64,000 nucleotides of DNA from an uncultured Candidatus Saccharibacteria bacterium (GCA_964557535.1 CAZLAD010000002.1:85560-149559), one strand, 5' to 3'; positions 17,938-59,975 are shown, counted from the first letter of the stretch. Notes: generated by a model from the letters alone, not told the origin. Made by a program: numbers and translations.

Positions 17938-18024
17938 CGGAGACGAGAGGATTCGAACCTCCGAGGGCTTTTACACCCTACCTCGTTAGCAGTGAGGCGC
18001 TTTCGACCACTCAGCCACGTCTCC
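17938..18024 (-). tRNA. tRNA-Ser (anticodon GCU), class II with long variable arm
   Basis: Reverse complement folds as acceptor GGAGACG/CGTCTCC, D-loop GAGTGGTCGAA, anticodon loop CUGCUAA, long variable arm, T-loop GGAGGTTCGAATCCTCT. No encoded CCA. Confidence 0.85.
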
Positions 18025-25861: not shown

Positions 25862-25936
25862 TCCACCCTCCACGACTCGAACGTGGGACCCTCGAGGTAT
25901 AAGCTCGATGCTCTAACCAACTGAGCTAAGGGTGGT
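25862..25936 (-). tRNA. tRNA-Ile (anticodon UAU)
   Basis: Reverse complement: acceptor CCACCCU/AGGGUGG, D-arm GCUCAGUUGGUUAGAGC, anticodon arm UCGAG-CUUAUAC-CUCGA, T-arm CCACG-UUCGAGU-CGUGG, discriminator A. Confidence 0.8.
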
Positions 25937-28508: not shown

Positions 28509-28884
28509 GGGGATGACCGGCTTTGACATTTGATTCCCTTTTGTTAGCGCATGTCGAGCTGAAGTAACTCGTCAAACTGCTTCAAACCCTTAGATGCAAA
28601 ATCTAAAGGACTAGTGAAGTCTCCATTTCAAATGAAGGCTTTCACTCCAGCTTTCGCGTAAGCCAGGGCTGGTGTCATTCATTCTGAATCCTGATACGGA
28701 TGAATGGCATAATAAAATCGGGATAAGCGCTCGGCCTTCTCGCCCGCGCGACAAAAATCTAGAGATCGATTCGTGTTTGTTTTGTTTATCCTATAGAACA
28801 CGTCTCTAAATCAAAAGATAAACTACACATGTAGACCCTAGCAGAAGCATCTTATGGACGGGGGTTCAATTCCCCCCATCTCCA
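28509..28884 (+). ncRNA. ssrA: tmRNA (SsrA)
   Basis: 5' GGGGAUG pairs with 3' CAUCUCC including the G3-U wobble. T-arm GGGGGUUCAAUUCCCCC then ACA. An internal reading frame ends ...QMKAFTPAFA*. Terminator follows. Confidence 0.8.
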
Positions 28885-28890
28885 CAATTA

Positions 28891-34969: not shown

Positions 34970-35419
34970 TTACTTTACTGAACCGCCAGCTTTTTCAATT
35001 GCTGTTTTTGCTGTTCCGGAAATTTCTAAACCTAGAATTTTGAATTTCTTTTTGACTTCTCCTCTTGCGAGAATTTTTACGTTAGGATTCTTGCCGCGAA
35101 CTTTTTTGACCAGACTCTTTTCCAGAAGCGCACTCAAATTTATCGTATCTCCATCTTTGAAATTTTCTTCTAGAACGTCAATGTTTACGACTGTTGGTCG
35201 AATTTTTGATCCATCGACACTTGCTGATCTATTTTTACCGTGTCCGCGAAGTTTTGGAAATTTCTTGATGGTGTCACGAAGCTCAGGACGAACTCCATGA
35301 GAACCGTGTGCCCACTGACCTTTTGTTCCGCGTCCAGAAGTCTTGCCACGCTTGCCTCCTCGGCCGATAAGCTTGGTTTTCTTGTTCTTGGTTTTTCTTA
35401 CTAAATTATTTGTTTGCAT
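34970..35419 (-). CDS. rplO: 50S ribosomal protein L15
   Basis: Gly/Lys/Arg-rich N-terminus (GRGGKRGKTSGRGTKGQ). Confidence 0.93.
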   Translation of the reverse strand: MQTNNLVRKTKNKKTKLIGRGGKRGKTSGRGTKGQWAHGSHGVRPELRDTIKKFPKLRGHGKNRSASVDGSKIRPTVVNIDVLEENFKDGDTINLSALLEKSLVKKVRGKNPNVKILARGEVKKKFKILGLEISGTAKTAIEKAGGSVK

Positions 35420-35429
35420 AAAAGTCTTA

Positions 35430-36053
35430 TTATTCTACCACTTCACCCTTGGCTTTTGGTAATTTTGCTGGTTTCAAAGTCTTTAGGGCGATGACGACGG
35501 CCTTGGCGTTATTCAAATGAGTCTTTGAGCGAGAAAAGATTTTACTGGTGACATTTTTCAAGCCACCCAAAATCATAATGTCACGAATTGCACCACCCAC
35601 AACCAGACCCTTGCCCGAGTTTGGCATAAGCATAACGCGAGACGCCTTGAATTTACCTTCGACTGCGTGACTTATGGACATGTCCTTGGTTGTCGCGATT
35701 TTAAACATGTGCTTTCGAGCAGAGGCAACGGCTTTGTTGATGGCAAGAGTTGTGTCAGAAGATTTACCAAGACCAAGACCAACTGAACCCTTTTTGTCTC
35801 CCACAAGCATTGCTACTGAAAAAGAGAATCGGCGACCACCAGAAACTACACGCGTAACGCGACGAATAGACAGGATTTTCTGATCAAATTCAGGCTTTTC
35901 TCGTCGTTCAGAAGTTTTGCGTCTATCACCACCTCGGCCATAAGAACGTCCAGAAGAAGATGTCGATCCCGAGCCTTTTTGGTATGACGAAGGAGACTTT
36001 GGAGCCACGGCTACGTCTGTCTTTACTTCTGTTGTTGTATTTGGAGTATCCAT
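35430..36053 (-). CDS. rpsE: 30S ribosomal protein S5 (with N-terminal low-complexity extension)
   Basis: RVTRVVSGGRRFSFSVAMLVGDKKGSVGLGLGKS core. Confidence 0.93.
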   Translation of the reverse strand: MDTPNTTTEVKTDVAVAPKSPSSYQKGSGSTSSSGRSYGRGGDRRKTSERREKPEFDQKILSIRRVTRVVSGGRRFSFSVAMLVGDKKGSVGLGLGKSSDTTLAINKAVASARKHMFKIATTKDMSISHAVEGKFKASRVMLMPNSGKGLVVGGAIRDIMILGGLKNVTSKIFSRSKTHLNNAKAVVIALKTLKPAKLPKAKGEVVE

Positions 36054-37427: not shown

Positions 37428-37697
37428 TTACCAAGATGACTTGCGAACACCTGGAACTTCACCTATAGAAGCTAATTCGCGGAATTTGATACGAGAAAGT
37501 CCAAAGTCTCGTAGATATCCTCGTGGACGACCAGTGATCCCGCAACGATTCTTTACGCGTGTTGGACTAGAATTTTTTGGAAGCTTCTGAAGACCTTCGT
37601 AGTCTCCGGAAGCCTTAAGAGCTGCTCTTTTAGCAGCGTATTTTGCAACCATTTTGATGCGCTTATTATTTCGCGCGATTACTGATTTTTTAGCCAT
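37428..37697 (-). CDS. rpsN: 30S ribosomal protein S14 (long form)
   Basis: 89 aa, C-terminus [33 protein letters not shown]. Confidence 0.93.
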
Positions 37698-38133
37698 TGT
37701 TTTTTAGCTGTTAGCTTCTGGCCATTAGCTATTAGCTAAAGGCTAATGGCTAATGGCTCCGGTTCAGTAATATCTCACGTTTTTTCTTGAAGGTCCCGAG
37801 GGGCATTCAAGGAGAAACGCGGATTAAACTGAACTGAGGGCTATATTAGCAGATTGAGATTTTATGTCAATCAAAATAATTTGAGCCCCGGTCTTGTTAG
37901 ACCAGGGCCCCATAGCTGACACGTAAAGTGCTTTTGATAGCGACTTGAATAGCCAAAGGACTTTGGTCCTCGGCAGGGGCAAGAGCACCTGCAAGAATGC
38001 TCTGCCACCCGCCGAGACCATACGACTTGTTGGCATGAACTCTATCATACTCCAACCATATTGTCAAGCGATTTTGGACAATCTTTTACTACCCTGAATT
38101 TATTCATTCCAACGTTCCTCATTGTCTCCACCG

Positions 38134-38170
38134 GACCGTCTCCGCTAGGCCGGACCTAGCGGAGACGGTC
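38134..38170. repeat. perfect 16-bp GC-rich hairpin GACCGTCTCCGCTAGG-CCGGA-CCTAGCGGAGACGGTC
   Basis: Seen directly. Adjacent to palindrome copy 3. No U-tract on either strand. Confidence 0.7.
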
Positions 38171-38184
38171 TCGCGGATAAAAAT

Positions 38185-38222
38185 GTATCATTTTTGTGGA
38201 CGGTCGTCTCAAAAAATGATAC
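38185..38222. repeat. long AT-arm/GC-core palindrome, copy 3 (GTATCATTTTTGTGGACGGTCGTCTCAAAAAATGATAC)
   Basis: Near-identical to the palindrome at 1989-2026 downstream of the wHTH-Cas2-like gene. Confidence 0.8.
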
Positions 38223-38290
38223 GCAAGAAAAATTATGAGATATGAAACAAGAAAGCCCGCGGGCGGCTTTCAAGGGCCAAGAGCGGGCTA

Positions 38291-38689
38291 TTAGGCAGAT
38301 TTGAGGTGGTAACGGCCTTCGAGATAGACACGAAGGGCGTCTTGTACGATTATCAGATCTTTTGTTTCTAGCTCCTCAGACAGAAGGTTCGGCACCATCT
38401 CGATGAAATAGTGCTGGAACATGGCCGCTAGATCATCCAACTCTTCGTTGAAGTTTGCCATGTCTTTTGGAGTAGCTCTGTGATTCCATTCAGTAATCGG
38501 TAGGGCTGCTGGCACGCGATTTCCAGAAAGCCCTTTAAAGGCTATCCTATGCGCTTTTGAGAGAGCTATGTCGATCATACTCACCAACGTGAGCAAACGA
38601 CTCGCCTCTTTAGGGAACAGTTCGCGAATGAGATCGTGCACTGTGGGGATCTCATTTTTTGAGGTCTCATTTTTAGTTAGCATGGCCAC
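38291..38689 (-). CDS. orphan 132-aa protein inserted between rplE and rpsN
   Basis: Higher GC (about 47%). Five spaced His residues (possible DinB-like helical bundle, speculative). Confidence 0.55.
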   Translation of the reverse strand: MAMLTKNETSKNEIPTVHDLIRELFPKEASRLLTLVSMIDIALSKAHRIAFKGLSGNRVPAALPITEWNHRATPKDMANFNEELDDLAAMFQHYFIEMVPNLLSEELETKDLIIVQDALRVYLEGRYHLKSA

Positions 38690-38775
38690 TGAGTTTGTTT
38701 TACCTTACACCAATCTCTAAAAAAACAAAAGCCCCTTTTGGGGCGATTGTTTTCTTAATACTTAATTCCTAATTC

Positions 38776-39315
38776 TTACTTCTTAAACGGAATTCCGAGG
38801 TAATCGAAGAATGCTTTAGCTTCTTCTTTGTTCTTTGCAGTCGTTACAAATGTGATCGCGAGGCCAAAAACGTCTTTGAGTTCTTCGTCCCCTGTTTCTG
38901 GGAAGATCGTGTGTTCTTTGATACCGATTGTCAGGTTTCCGACGTCATCGATTCCTTTCGATTCGAGTCCGCGGAAGTCTTTGGTTCGAGGAAATGACAC
39001 ATGGATTAGTTTGTCGACAAACGAATTCATGCGTTCACCGCGAAGTGTAACCATCTGACCAATGACTTCGTTTTCGCGAAGTTTGAAAGACGCGATTGAC
39101 TGTTTGGCTGCACGTGGAGATGTTTTCTGGCCAGTAATCTTGGCAAGTCGGTCAGCGATAAAATCATTTTTATTTTTATCGTTTTTCATTTTCGATCCTG
39201 TTCCAGAAGAAACAACGACTTTTACCAATCGTGGCGCAGACAAAGGATTTTTGTAACCAAATTTTGGTTTCAAAACCTTGTAAGTATTTGCTAGTTTTTG
39301 TTTAGTAGTTTCCAT
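38776..39315 (-). CDS. rplE: 50S ribosomal protein L5
   Basis: 179 aa, L5. Confidence 0.93.
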   Translation of the reverse strand: METTKQKLANTYKVLKPKFGYKNPLSAPRLVKVVVSSGTGSKMKNDKNKNDFIADRLAKITGQKTSPRAAKQSIASFKLRENEVIGQMVTLRGERMNSFVDKLIHVSFPRTKDFRGLESKGIDDVGNLTIGIKEHTIFPETGDEELKDVFGLAITFVTTAKNKEEAKAFFDYLGIPFKK

Positions 39316-41622: not shown

Positions 41623-42090
41623 TTAGCTGTTAGCTGTTAGCTTTTGGCTTTTAGCTTTTTTGGCGACCCCCGCTCGGGCTGGCTTTTTGACTGTAGCCTT
41701 CTTGGCAACGGGTTTTTCGGCTTTTTCTACTTTGATCTCTGCTACTTCCTTGGCACCAGCAGATTTTTTGGAAGCCAAAGTTACCACAACATGGCAAGTT
41801 CTTTTATTTATCGGATATCCGGAACCACGAGCACGAGGTCGCATACGTTTCAATGTGATGCCTTTGTTGACCTCGATACTTTTGACCATCAAATCAGCAG
41901 TGTCGACACCAGAATTTACGCGAGCATTAGCGATCGCAGAATCAATCAATTTTTTGATTGGGTCAGCAGAGCGTTTCGGCATAAAAGACAAAATCAAAGA
42001 CGCATTCTGAGCAGATTTACCAACGACGGCCTTCGCCACTAGGCGGACCTTTCGAGGTGATTGTCTGTAGTTTTTAAGAATGGCTTTCAT
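41623..42090 (-). CDS. rplV: 50S ribosomal protein L22 (with C-terminal Ala/Lys extension encoded by a TAGC-type repeat)
   Basis: 155 aa. The C-terminal tail ...KKAKSQKLTANS is encoded by the GCTAA repeat block at 41625-41665. Confidence 0.92.
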   Translation of the reverse strand: MKAILKNYRQSPRKVRLVAKAVVGKSAQNASLILSFMPKRSADPIKKLIDSAIANARVNSGVDTADLMVKSIEVNKGITLKRMRPRARGSGYPINKRTCHVVVTLASKKSAGAKEVAEIKVEKAEKPVAKKATVKKPARAGVAKKAKSQKLTANS

Positions 42091-42095
42091 ATATT

Positions 42096-42452
42096 TTATT
42101 TCTTCTTATCAGCACCCTTATCTGCAGTCGCGGCTTTGGCAGACTGAGCAGCTGCGATTTCAGATTCTTTCTTCTTCTGCTCAAGCTCTTTCATAAGCTT
42201 ACCGCCGTGTCGGTGGAATTTACGGGTCGGAGAAAATTCACCCAATCGGTGTCCAACCATGTCTTCGGTGACGAAAACTTTGATGTGGTCTTTGCCATTG
42301 TGAACGCCAAAAGAAAAGCCAATCATTTCAGGAGCGATTTGGGAAGCTCTGGCCCACGTGTTAATAACCCCAGTTTCTTGGGGCTTTTTTCCAGCAATCT
42401 TCTTTAGAAGCTTTGCATCTATGTATGGACCTTTTTTAAGTGATCTTGTCAT
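42096..42452 (-). CDS. rpsS: 30S ribosomal protein S19 (with C-terminal extension)
   Basis: [18 protein letters not shown] motif. Confidence 0.93.
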
Positions 42453-42632
42453 TGTTGTTTAATGAGAAATCGTCGTCATGGCTAGGTCGTGGGTCTCTAG
42501 AGAATCCAGAGCGTCACCGCCATCTTCGTATTTCATTTTCAAAAAAATTCAGGCCCTTCGGCCGAATAGGTAGCATACTAGCAGATAGGGTTTTGAAAGT
42601 CAAACTTGGTAAGCCAGTTTCTTTTTAATAAT

Positions 42633-42660
42633 TGACAATATGGCTTATATATGATACTAT
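42633..42660 (+). promoter_or_regulatory. sigma70-like promoter TTGACA-N16-TACTAT for the opposite-strand lipoprotein gene
   Basis: -35 at 42633-42638, -10 at 42655-42660, ATG at 42679. Confidence 0.5.
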
Positions 42661-42678
42661 CATGCAAAACCAACCCTG

Positions 42679-43182
42679 ATGAAGCACCTGCTCTTCCTTT
42701 TTTCCTGTGCGTTGTTCATCTTCTCCTGCGCCAACCCTTCCCTCGAGGAAGAAGCGATGGGTGAGATCACACAGCTCCAACCCAACAACCAAAGCGCATC
42801 TATGGAACCAACGAGTGCAATAGATGAGCACCTGCGGTTCAAACTCCCCCAAGGTTCATACCAGAATCTGGTCTATCTGATGGAGTTGAATGCAATAATC
42901 GGCGAGCATGCTGACCTGACCACTTGGTGGTATGCGACCCCACCGATAAATGGGTACGTTCACGACCTGAACGTAATACAAGGACCTACACCTGAGGAAT
43001 GGCGTCAACTCCAAACTCCTCGATGGATCCTGGTCCATGTGAGATCCAAAGGTGCACCTTGGGGAGAGAAATTGTTTTCCTACAGTCTTCTGCCGAGCGA
43101 TGACATCCTCTTCGATTCACCCGCAGACACGGTCCATGCAGACATGATCCGAGATGCTATAAACGAAATACTGAAGGAGTAA
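42679..43182 (+). CDS. putative lipoprotein (167 aa), high-GC, inserted antisense within the S10 operon
   Basis: Signal peptide with a lipobox-like LFSCA/IFSC. GC about 50% with atypical codons. Has its own promoter and terminator. Confidence 0.6.
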   Translation: MKHLLFLFSCALFIFSCANPSLEEEAMGEITQLQPNNQSASMEPTSAIDEHLRFKLPQGSYQNLVYLMELNAIIGEHADLTTWWYATPPINGYVHDLNVIQGPTPEEWRQLQTPRWILVHVRSKGAPWGEKLFSYSLLPSDDILFDSPADTVHADMIRDAINEILKE

Positions 43183-43202
43183 ACGCACTAATGAACAACG
43201 CG

Positions 43203-43236
43203 AAAGCGCCCCGAGTATACGGGGCGCTTTCTGCTT
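43203..43236 (+). terminator. terminator AAAGCGCCCCGAGUAUACGGGGCGCUUUCUGCUUUUCU (bidirectional-capable)
   Basis: Perfect hairpin plus U-tract after the lipoprotein gene, 3 nt from the rplB stop. Confidence 0.8.
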
Positions 43237-43238
43237 TT

Positions 43239-44093
43239 CTACACAATCTTCTGCTGATTTCTCTTTGTTTTTCTGCGAGTAACCACTTGATTGTTTGAGT
43301 ATTTCTTTGATTTTCGAGTTTTGACTCCGTAAGCGAGTTTTCCGTGACGAGTCTTTGGACCTCGGCGAAGTCCGATTCCCTGTCGTCCTTCTCCTCCACC
43401 GTGTGGGTGATCAACTGGACTCATGGCCGAACCGCGAACCGTTGGGCGAATGCCCTTCCAGCGACTTCGTCCAGCTTTACCAAAGTTTGTAAGTTTCCAT
43501 TCAGCGTTTGAAACTTCGCCGACACATGCCCAAGCAAGCGTTGGAACTTTTCGAACTTCAGTTGAAGGCATTTTTAGGAATGTCTTGTCGCCATCATGTG
43601 CCACAACCTGCAGGAACGATCCAGCAGACCTGGCGAGCTTGGCACCGCCGTTTGTCTTGATCTCGACGTTGTAAACAAAAGTACCAACTGGAATATTTAC
43701 AAGCGGAAGTCGATTACCAAGTTTTGGTTCGGCAGTCTTTGAGACAATAAATTTGTCTCCGACTTTTGCACCCTTTGGAATTACGACATAACGTTTTTCA
43801 CCATCAGCATAAACAGCAAGTGATATAAAAGCGTTTCGATTTGGATCGTATTCGACGGTTGTAAATTTAGCTGGGATATCAAATTTGTTGTATTTGAAAT
43901 CGACATCGCGATAAGAACGCTTGTGTCCACCTCCTTTGTGCGGAGTAGTAATGCGTCCCTGGTTGTTGCGACCAACATGGCGTTTACCACCTTTGGTCAA
44001 TTTCTTGTGCGGATGCTTGGTCGTCAAATTGTCTCGATAAGAAACAACTGTCATTCCACGGCGTCCGGCTGATGTTGGTTTGAACTTCTTCAT
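43239..44093 (-). CDS. rplB: 50S ribosomal protein L2
   Basis: 284 aa, L2. Confidence 0.95.
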   Translation of the reverse strand: MKKFKPTSAGRRGMTVVSYRDNLTTKHPHKKLTKGGKRHVGRNNQGRITTPHKGGGHKRSYRDVDFKYNKFDIPAKFTTVEYDPNRNAFISLAVYADGEKRYVVIPKGAKVGDKFIVSKTAEPKLGNRLPLVNIPVGTFVYNVEIKTNGGAKLARSAGSFLQVVAHDGDKTFLKMPSTEVRKVPTLAWACVGEVSNAEWKLTNFGKAGRSRWKGIRPTVRGSAMSPVDHPHGGGEGRQGIGLRRGPKTRHGKLAYGVKTRKSKKYSNNQVVTRRKTKRNQQKIV

Positions 44094-44215
44094 TTGATTA
44101 TCGTTTTTAAAACACTACTTATCGGCAAGTGCAACCATAATTTGTAAATTAAGAAGCCTTGAGCCCTTAGCTTTTAGCCGTTAGCTAACGGCCAATGGCT
44201 AAGAGCTAACAGCTC

Positions 44216-59326: not shown

Positions 59327-59384
59327 TGTAGAATCAATCCATTACAAGCTAACTGCTAAAAGCTAACAACTAATAGCTCCAAAA

Positions 59385-59975
59385 ATGTTAATCCCAACCG
59401 TAATCGAAAAATCTTCATTCGGCGAAAGAGCCTACGACATTTATTCCAGACTTTTACGTGAACGAATCATCTTTGTCACGGGAGAAATAAATGATCAAAT
59501 GGCCAACACTGTCGTTGCTCAATTACTATTTCTTGAATCCGAAGATCCGAAAAAAGACATTAGTCTATACGTCAACTCCCCGGGGGGATCGGTCTCGGCT
59601 GGTATGGCAATCGTTGATACGATGAACCACATCAAACCGGAAGTTTCGACCATCTGCGTCGGTATTGCAGCCTCGATGGGCGCCTGGATCCTCTCTCAGG
59701 GCCAAAAAGGTAAAAGATTTGTCCTACCAAATGCTGAAGTGTTGATTCATCAACCACTTGGCGGAGTTTCTGGTCAAGCATCTGACATACTCATCACTGC
59801 CGAAAATATCATCAAAATCAAAAACAAGATGGCGAAAATGCTTGCAGACGCAACCGGTCAAAAAGTAGAAAAAATAATAAAAGATGTCGATCGCGATTTT
59901 TGGATGGACGCCGATGAAGCCAAAAAATACGGAATTGTCGACAAAATAATGACCAAACCGCCTTCAAAGAAATAA
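59385..59975 (+). CDS. clpP: ATP-dependent Clp protease proteolytic subunit
   Basis: Ser-His-Asp triad context ([15 protein letters not shown]). 196 aa. Confidence 0.93.

Follow-up and report, generated by a model that had tools for sequence, protein, structure and literature searches.

A hypervariable gene islet and a candidate leader RNA between rplB and rpsS of an uncultured bacterium

The rplB-rpsS junction and its inserted gene

The window analyzed here, a 64,000-nucleotide stretch of DNA from an uncultured bacterium deposited as Candidatus Saccharibacteria (GCA_964557535.1 CAZLAD010000002.1:85560-149559), carries the tuf-S10-spc ribosomal supercluster on its minus strand, with no rRNA genes found within the 64 kb. 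Between rplB and rpsS, a 167-aa ORF occupies positions 42679-43182 of the plus strand, as the first-pass annotation of this DNA had stated, and both flanking genes are confirmed by Pfam. We use the label orfX for this inserted gene. The features of the junction, with positions counted from the first nucleotide of the window and the basis of each assignment, are the following.

42096-42452, minus strand: rpsS (uS19), opening the distal transcription unit; Pfam PF00203, E 3e-32
42473-42573, minus strand: candidate rpsS 5' leader RNA, conserved and structured; alignment, covariance model and covariation
42575-42603, minus strand: predicted rpsS promoter, TTGACT-N17-TAGTAT with an upstream TG (extended -10); scan and conservation
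42632-42660, plus strand: predicted orfX promoter, TTGACA-N17-TACTAT with an upstream TG; motif scan, conserved in relatives
42679-43182, plus strand: orfX, a 167-aa ORF in the ORF list, member of a small protein family
43202-43241, plus strand: predicted orfX intrinsic terminator, 12-bp stem, 6-nt loop and T-rich tail; conserved in relatives
43239-44093, minus strand: rplB (uL2), with which the proximal S10 transcription unit ends; Pfam PF00181 and PF03947

With respect to the host, the rplB of the window is closest (58-68% identity) to MAGs labeled Saccharibacteria, Patescibacteria group, Taylorbacteria or Kaiserbacteria, L15 directly follows the S5 gene without an intervening L30, and Shine-Dalgarno (SD)-like motifs are found upstream of only 6 of the 71 window genes. 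The uS19 protein has an Ala/Lys-rich C-terminal extension, a feature reported for Parcubacteria (PMC9297842). Taken together, the rplB matches, the S5-L15 order without L30, the uS19 tail and the rarity of SD motifs indicate a Parcubacteria-type CPR bacterium.

The predicted product of orfX consists of a lipobox signal peptide, a disordered linker (approximately aa 19-50) and an alpha/beta domain (aa 50-167). Its N-terminus, MKHLLFLFSCALFIFSC, matches a PROSITE-type lipobox regular expression (N-terminal basic residue, hydrophobic core, [LIVMFWSTAG]2-[LIVMFYSTAGCQ]-[AGS]-C, with the Cys at position 15-35), and it is the only one among 71 ORFs in the window to do so. The protein resembles bacterial lipoproteins (PROSITE PS51257-type lipobox) in Lys2, in the hydrophobic core and in the I-F-S-C motif with Cys at position 17 (codon 42727-42729), but the Phe at position -2 is atypical. 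The proposed lipoprotein identity would thus apply to the window protein and not to the family, since the lipobox cysteine (...IFSC) is kept in only three of eight members, P0001-P0003, which are the closest homologues of orfX. The five more distant members lack the Cys and resemble signal-anchor proteins, with P0004, P0005, P0007 and P0008 having a hydrophobic, predicted uncleaved anchor without it, so that a hydrophobic N-terminus is found in seven of the eight aligned members. P0006, the exception, has a start 35 residues short of that of P0007, to which it is closely related. As a family, these proteins are predicted to be membrane-anchored or exported, with only the window's subtype being lipoprotein-like, and we infer that the orfX product is an exported, membrane-tethered surface protein.

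Structure prediction, which the first-pass annotation had suggested, gave an AlphaFold2 model (m063f5f5d736b, from an 8-sequence alignment) with pLDDT > 90 over aa 50-167. The modeled domain (~115 aa) comprises a helix, five or six strands and a long C-terminal helix, and is preceded by the disordered linker. Foldseek searches with this model returned nothing at E <= 0.001 against either the PDB (best E 0.26, TM 0.30) or BFVD (best E 0.02, TM at most 0.39). Furthermore, Pfam gave no matches for the orfX family and NCBIfam no significant match, the best hit having an E of 0.008 for one member only. The alpha/beta domain is therefore a confident prediction of a fold without detectable relatives in the databases searched.

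In base composition, orfX is somewhat atypical, as had been claimed, but it lies in an upper tail that it shares with several other window genes of equal GC or GC3. Its GC is 0.500 versus 0.434 +/- 0.036 across 74 window ORFs (z ~1.85), its GC3 is 0.565 versus 0.42 +/- 0.08 for window ORFs (z ~1.8), and its codon usage is the third most deviant of 71 ORFs and the most deviant among the 28 ORFs of 120-220 aa. GC3 is higher in the plus-strand genes taken together than in those of the minus strand (0.49 versus 0.40). The homologues of orfX have a GC of 0.49-0.56 whatever the GC of their flanks (0.445 to 0.58), and the high-GC look of the gene arises because the window represents a low-GC lineage.

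The orfX promoter boxes, TTGACA (42632-42637) and TACTAT (42655-42660), are those of the first-pass annotation and are conserved in relatives; the spacer is 17 nt long, not 16 nt. A promoter of this type is found at a fixed distance of -46/-47 from the ATG in the window and in L006, L007, L091, L093, L096 and L088. The orfX and rpsS promoters lie back to back, their -35 boxes separated by 28 bp. The 5' UTR of orfX would be ~12 nt long and carries a conserved CAAAACC without an SD sequence, which is normal for this host genome given how rare such motifs are in it. At the other end, the perfect hairpin that had been reported to abut the rplB stop codon is confirmed, with a 12-bp stem GAAAGCGCCCCG/CGGGGCGCTTTC (43202-43231) followed by TGCTTTTCTA, 7 nt from the stop codon. 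The ends of orfX and rplB meet head to head on this hairpin, and because its minus-strand tail is only GCGUUGUU, it would be at best a weak terminator for rplB. In all eight loci examined, the GAAAG...CTTTC stem is kept with inner pairs covarying and a T-tract on the gene's strand. Within a single sequence, promoters and terminators are not above chance, with three of each found in the region versus 3.5 expected from shuffled sequence, and the case for both signals consequently rests on their conservation in relatives. This conservation supports the view that orfX is a self-contained unit with a sigma-70-type promoter and an intrinsic terminator of its own. As a separate observation, the signal-peptide codons at 42709-42719 and the 3' UTR at 43191-43201 contain the arms of a perfect 11-nt inverted repeat, which is absent from all homologues and which we regard as chance.

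The orfX family and the contents of the spacer

Three protein database searches, covering 1.8-5.8 billion proteins, yielded eight members of the orfX family (P0001-P0008), with 28-72% BLASTP identity to the window protein and 14 invariant columns in the alignment across the eight. Translated ORFs of the loci themselves gave two more, a 167-aa protein of L106 that belongs to the family and L107_178, a shorter match, so that the full-length proteins number nine in total (from the 5.8 billion searched plus L106). No homologues were found among the 1.8-5.8 billion proteins outside the rplB-rpsS junction or outside one Parcubacteria clade, and patterns derived from the proteins of the three closest homologues retrieved no relatives when scanned against metagenomes.

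We observe that orfX lies at the rplB-rpsS junction, on the opposite strand, in every locus that reaches a neighboring ribosomal gene or the rpsS leader (L007, L088, L091, L092, L093-97 and L106, with L090 being too short to place). In L006, orfX is separated from the leader by purC and two more genes. The antisense arrangement is shared with homologues of 60, 34, 34, 31 and 28% identity, at loci whose rplB, rpsS and rpsC are 83-96% identical to those of the window. Since the same junction and the same orientation are kept down to 28% identity, orfX is, by this comparison, a long-term resident of the clade rather than a recent foreign insert. No integrase, transposase or flanking direct or inverted repeats were found at the cassette.

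The DNA between the rplB terminator and the rpsS promoter, which we call the islet, holds 0-6 genes in 0.3-3.9 kb. Its contents across the loci compared are listed below; in L099-L101, L103, L104 and L107, rplB is not on the short contig.

L102: empty
Window and L091: orfX alone
L007: orfX and a partial ORF with homology to the L099 protein (contig without rplB)
L089, L092 and L093-97: orfX and a 155-157-aa membrane protein
L006: orfX and purC, a 207-aa HExxH protein and a 73-aa protein
L088: orfX, a 157-aa ORF with a hydrophobic N-terminus and a 126-aa ORF
L098: a 171-aa protein
L105: a 157-aa lipoprotein-like protein and a 115-aa ORF
L106: six genes in 3.9 kb
L100, cargo next to the leader: purC (contig ends before rplB)
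L099, cargo next to the leader: a 280-aa signal-peptide protein (contig ends before rplB)
L101/L104, cargo next to the leader: a TM protein (contigs end before rplB)

Besides orfX, the cargo includes g157, the 157p lipoprotein family and a 171/142-aa protein, with purC and g157 being on the same strand as the ribosomal genes, and Pfam gave no match for most cargo genes. Several genes recur, namely a 207/206-aa protein in L006 and L106, purC in L006 and L100, and the 171/142-aa protein in L098 and L106. In more distant Parcubacteria, the junction is short or holds MazE/MazF, DgkA or ORFs of no assigned function. Comparison of these loci shows the spacer as a hypervariable accessory islet, with a recurring pool of cargo reshuffled between lineages.

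Integration hot spots and genomic islets between conserved core genes are a known element of bacterial genome organization. The islet is like them in its constant flanks and in a cargo of 0 to 6 genes drawn from a shared pool, which in a more distant relative also includes a toxin-antitoxin pair. It differs in lying inside the most conserved bacterial gene cluster, without an integrase, tRNA or att-like repeat, and in having small cargo genes that each carry a promoter and terminator of their own.

An insertion between these two genes is unusual, with the approximate rplB-rpsS gap being at most ~105 nt in ~70 non-CPR genomes. The claim that rpsS and the later genes have a promoter of their own holds, as this promoter is near-invariant in relatives: TTGAC and TAGTAT are invariant in six loci, with a block consensus of TTGAC(A/T)-N17-TAGTAT. 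In the distant Parcubacteria (L008-L015), TTGAC[AT]-N17-TA is found before rpsS in all seven loci examined and TAGTAT in four of them; a short hairpin and a U-rich tract follow the promoter in five of the seven, and the P1/P2 element of the leader described below is absent. Such conservation supports a separate promoter for rpsS and the genes after it.

The empty site L102, whose rplB C-terminal fragment and rpsS are 93% and 92% identical to those of the window, has a bidirectional terminator after the rplB stop codon, a spacer of ~100 nt and then the same promoter and leader. The leader is also present with other cargo in L098-L105. As promoter and leader are found both at the empty site and with other cargo, the cassette did not create the operon split, contrary to the first-pass annotation, and sequence conservation at these sites shows the split of the S10 cluster to predate the cassette and not to depend on it.

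These comparisons bear directly on the original explanation of the locus, in which the cassette is a recent foreign acquisition that exerts antisense or terminator control over the downstream half of the S10 cluster, so that rpsS requires a promoter of its own. The composition of orfX (GC 0.50 versus 0.434, GC3 0.565, codon usage third most deviant of 71) and its convergence with rplB onto one shared hairpin are in line with this explanation. The GC of orfX is above that of its flanks in the window lineage and not in relatives, a pattern that fits import of an allele from a higher-GC relative. A broad distribution of the same arrangement had been named as a sign of ancient rather than recent acquisition, and the junction comparison finds it clade-wide, to 28% identity, with no homologues elsewhere, no mobility genes and no flanking repeats. 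The promoter, the leader and the rplB terminator are moreover present at the empty site and with unrelated cargo. Both "recent" and "foreign" are contradicted by these data, and we consider the explanation unlikely.

The divergence of orfX does not follow that of its ribosomal neighbors. Between L093 and L096, uS19 is 100% identical at the amino acid level (dS 0.29), with orfX at 41% (dN 0.58, dS 1.12); the corresponding identities are 97% and 30% for L088 and L093, and 89% and 61% for the window and L007. The dN/dS of orfX is 0.41-0.54 in the two closest pairs, versus 0.12 for rpsS, based on NG86 estimates over 115-180 codons in which dS is noisy or saturated for most pairs. This incongruence with rpsS and the patchy presence of the gene (L102 being empty and L098-L105 having other cargo) suggest that orfX alleles have been exchanged or replaced among members of the clade, and patchiness and incongruence together support exchange within the clade, not foreign origin, as the probable source of the pattern. 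In line with such exchange, the tandem cassettes of L088 have an identical terminator-promoter-UTR module, and L107_178, which may be a bridging or mosaic protein, has matches to orfX (E 3e-11) as well as to the 157p family (E 8e-12). A possible orfX-157p paralogy would rest on this protein, since profile comparison of the two families by hhalign is weak (probability 17%, 24 columns). With the conserved family, the dN/dS values, the AlphaFold2 domain and the conserved promoter and terminator, orfX is shown to be a real gene, for a small protein that is predicted to be exported.

A candidate leader RNA upstream of rpsS

Wherever the region lies on a contig, the leader sits between the TTGAC-N17-TAGTAT promoter and the rpsS ATG. 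A hairpin with a U-tract had been reported on the minus strand at 42552-42563; it is present, and we find that it extends to UUCGGCC-GAAG-GGCC(U)GAA at 42566-42548 (core GGCC-GAAG-GGCC, 42563-42552), followed by U7 at 42547-42541. It starts ~8 nt past the predicted transcription start. The leader, with a structure derived from RNAalifold and a covariance model (R1), reads from 5' to 3' as this hairpin, a U6-7 tract, an A-rich linker, GAGAUGGCGGUGA, a variable hairpin and CACGACCUAGCCAUG. Helix P1 is invariant, with AUGGCGGU (42523-42516) pairing with ACC..GCCAU (42487-42478), and encloses the variable hairpin P2 (42511-42495). The conserved block ends 25-65 nt before the rpsS ATG across loci.

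Model R1 scores 51-112 bits in 23 loci, in addition to the window at 95 bits; the rows represent 17 distinct lineages, as L094/L095 and L097 repeat L093 and L096, and L099 and L103 are identical. The proportion of paired cells is 94%, versus 84.5% in shuffles and 19-50% in slid controls. Compensatory changes are found in 9 of 20 pairs (6 of 6 in P2 and 3 of 5 in the 5' hairpin) over 16 leader sequences, 14 of them distinct, and none of 500 shuffles reaches these values. The alignment was fitted to the model, but the raw alignment shows the compensatory changes as well. For the window leader, the minimum free energy is -30.1 kcal/mol (z -2.6). A DNA-pattern scan of metagenomes for the leader recovered eight more loci, all with rpsS directly downstream. 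We also considered a leader peptide encoded by the conserved ATGGCGGTGA..., and rejected it, since its length and frame are not conserved and the base pairing is.

No family in Rfam 15 matches the leader, the best matches in the region being terminator look-alikes with E of at least 0.2, and the papers found describe neither an rpsS leader in CPR bacteria nor an interrupted rplB-rpsS junction. The closest counterparts are the E. coli S10 leader/L4 attenuator and the candidate "L2 r-leader", which precedes rplB-rpsS-rplV-rpsC in Alphaproteobacteria (PMC7247131). They are likewise structured RNAs in the 5' UTR of an S10-cluster gene block, and likewise have a hairpin followed by a U-tract. The rpsS leader differs from them in its position before rpsS, rather than rpsJ or rplB, in its occurrence in Parcubacteria, and in having no Rfam 15 match. 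In addition, the order of a classical attenuator is reversed, with the terminator-like hairpin coming first, within ~35 nt of the predicted start, and P1/P2 after it. A 2020 list of 20 candidate leaders includes no S19 or Patescibacteria leader (PMC7247131). We therefore put forward the rpsS leader as a candidate for a previously undescribed structured leader RNA. It may regulate the translation or stability of the rpsS mRNA, possibly via a ribosomal protein, and its promoter-proximal hairpin-U7 could act as a terminator or insulator, or as a 5' stabilizer.

Possible roles of the islet and its cargo

In our reading, the exported-protein gene is probably one cargo of a hypervariable islet in a gap of the S10 cluster that was split beforehand, with alleles that are replaced and a role at the surface, not in translation. 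Transcription of orfX would run from ~42667 to termination at 43231, rplB transcripts would be at most partly stopped by the shared hairpin, and rpsS and the downstream genes would be transcribed from ~42568. The gene may persist at this junction because the inter-operon gap is permissive, and its alleles would be replaced by recombination between relatives. The protein, tethered to the membrane, would act at the cell surface in an interaction under diversifying pressure, such as contact with a host, a phage or a neighbor, and would not act in translation. The divergent arrangement with a strong rpsS promoter may tie orfX expression to growth.

The S10-spc cluster is a textbook case of frozen gene order and forms the backbone of the ribosomal-protein trees that place CPR bacteria. 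One of its junctions would here be a transcriptional break that collects fast-turning accessory genes, which matters for binning and for synteny-based marker extraction. The leader would add a candidate ribosomal leader RNA to a phylum with almost no known regulatory RNAs, and the exported-protein family, diverging far faster than its neighbors, offers candidate host- or phage-interaction factors in organisms not yet grown alone. A split S10 cluster with a candidate leader RNA and a hypervariable islet of cassettes for exported proteins makes the context of the locus more interesting than the horizontal transfer that had first been proposed for it.

A more specific version, which we advance tentatively and regard as possible rather than probable, holds that the islet is a recombination-driven, hypervariable surface-protein locus in the S10 cluster, in which modular cassettes (a shared promoter, 5' UTR and anchor joined to divergent alpha/beta domains of new fold) are swapped between lineages and expressed back to back with the promoter of a new rpsS leader class. 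If this version is correct, ribosome synthesis and surface variation in episymbiont-type bacteria would be physically linked, and the link might extend to regulation. The Mollicutes have variable surface lipoprotein loci of this general kind in vlp and vsa. By analogy, the islet would share with them clustered small genes for lipoproteins or membrane-anchored proteins, a conserved promoter/5' UTR/anchor module with divergent mature parts, and a small-genome, host-dependent bacterium as its bearer. It differs from them in that neither an invertase nor a phase-variation tract (homopolymer or tandem repeat) is seen, in the lack of sequence or fold similarity, and in that its variation is seen between lineages, not within a clone.

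Apart from a foreign origin, the cassette may matter through its transcription rather than its protein, with convergent transcription or the antisense RNA itself insulating the two ribosomal operons or tuning read-through from rplB to rpsS. The shared hairpin lacks a good minus-strand U-tract (GCGUUGUU), which makes rplB read-through plausible, and at the opposite end of the cassette there is a hairpin with U7 (42566-42541). This hairpin-U7 is however located downstream of the rpsS promoter and is part of the leader even without an antisense gene. Relatives do without the cassette (L102) or have same-strand purC or g157 in its place, and the coding capacity, domain and invariant residues of orfX are conserved, leaving a role for the act of transcription improbable.

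The raised dN/dS (0.4-0.55 versus 0.12 for rpsS) and the lack of a known domain would also fit a neutral hitchhiker that landed once in a permissive gap, is hard to lose, and diverges by decay under relaxed constraint. Against decay, the ORF is intact in all lineages examined, its motifs, confident fold, promoter and terminator are conserved, putatively paralogous cassettes have expanded in L088, L106 and L107, and dS is incongruent with the flanks, pointing to replacement. We give this explanation little credence. That the orfX protein is tied to ribosome biogenesis or translation, and is kept in the ribosomal cluster for that reason, is highly improbable: its strict position beside rpsS and the back-to-back divergent promoters 28 bp apart agree with such a tie, but the protein has a secretion or membrane-anchor signal, is absent from the close relatives L102, L098 and L100, diverges extremely fast beside near-identical ribosomal proteins and gives way to unrelated genes at the same site.

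A minor observation concerns gene starts in the family: P0002 and P0003 are annotated with an "N-terminal extension" of nine residues, which is the promoter region read as codons.

Promoter and leader RNA ahead of rpsS

The rpsS gene is preceded by one conserved segment:

42473-42603, minus strand: near-invariant promoter and structured leader RNA, 5' of rpsS

The structure of this leader is backed by covariation, and the leader is present in 23 related loci, some of which are devoid of the inserted gene. No match was found among Rfam families, and we regard it, from sequence comparison, as a candidate new ribosomal-protein leader.

Cargo at the rplB-rpsS junction of relatives

With respect to the islet, the variable-cargo spacer between the rplB terminator and the rpsS promoter, we observe two proteins that each occur in two lineages:

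L099 137-979, plus strand, and L007 1374-2018, minus strand: 280-aa signal-peptide protein
L006 570-1193, minus strand, and L106 8473-9093, minus strand: 206-207-aa protein

The 280-aa protein is rich in beta-strand-like sequence, ends in ...GYLFITL and has a weak Pfam match to an OMP beta-barrel (E 0.012). Such an islet protein is odd in this group, whose members are presumed to have no outer membrane. The two copies of the 206-207-aa protein share 59% identity and carry a HELFH (HExxH-like) motif, with no Pfam family found.

Among more distant Parcubacteria, the junction holds a MazE/MazF toxin-antitoxin pair (L015 4898-5493) or a diacylglycerol kinase gene (L011 4905-5312), in both cases on the operon strand and 5' of an rpsS promoter.

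A second interrupted junction, rplE-rpsN

The ribosomal cluster is interrupted at another junction besides rplB-rpsS, between rplE (38776-39315) and rpsN (37428-37697), where the gap spans 1,078 bp, compared to 190-547 bp in relatives:

37698-38775, minus strand: rplE-rpsN gap
38744-38731, minus strand: terminator 3' of rplE
38291-38689, minus strand: 132-aa ORF without assigned function
38271-38251, minus strand: the ORF's own terminator
about 38067-37875, minus strand: candidate small RNA gene
38067-38039, minus strand: its candidate promoter, TTGACA-N17-TAGAGT
37910-37883, minus strand: its candidate terminator, a 12-bp hairpin ~130 nt past the promoter
37870-37843, minus strand: second conserved promoter, followed by a hairpin-rich leader, ahead of rpsN

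The rpsN promoter-leader segment shows 71-86% identity in two related loci (L091 and L105). For the candidate small RNA, the long internal hairpin gave no Rfam match, and blastn against related loci revealed no conserved counterpart.

A repeated motif and other features of the window

The motif AGCTAAYAGCTAA occurs in 8 copies in the window versus 0.17 expected by chance, all immediately 5' of a start codon, as follows:

37704-37739, minus strand: ahead of rpsN
41623-41642, minus strand: ahead of rpsC
44174-44186, minus strand: ahead of rplB
59347-59373, plus strand: ahead of the gene at 59385

Since the genome is largely without Shine-Dalgarno sequences (an SD-like upstream motif precedes just 6 of the 71 window ORFs), the motif could be a translation signal or a stop-rich insulator.

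Across the whole window, GC3 is clearly higher in plus-strand genes (0.49) than in minus-strand genes (0.40). The L30 gene is absent between S5 and L15, which directly adjoin (35419-35430), a trait reported for CPR bacteria. Three further RNA genes were located:

28509-28887, plus strand: tmRNA gene (150 bits)
25862-25935, minus strand: tRNA gene
17938-18024, minus strand: tRNA gene
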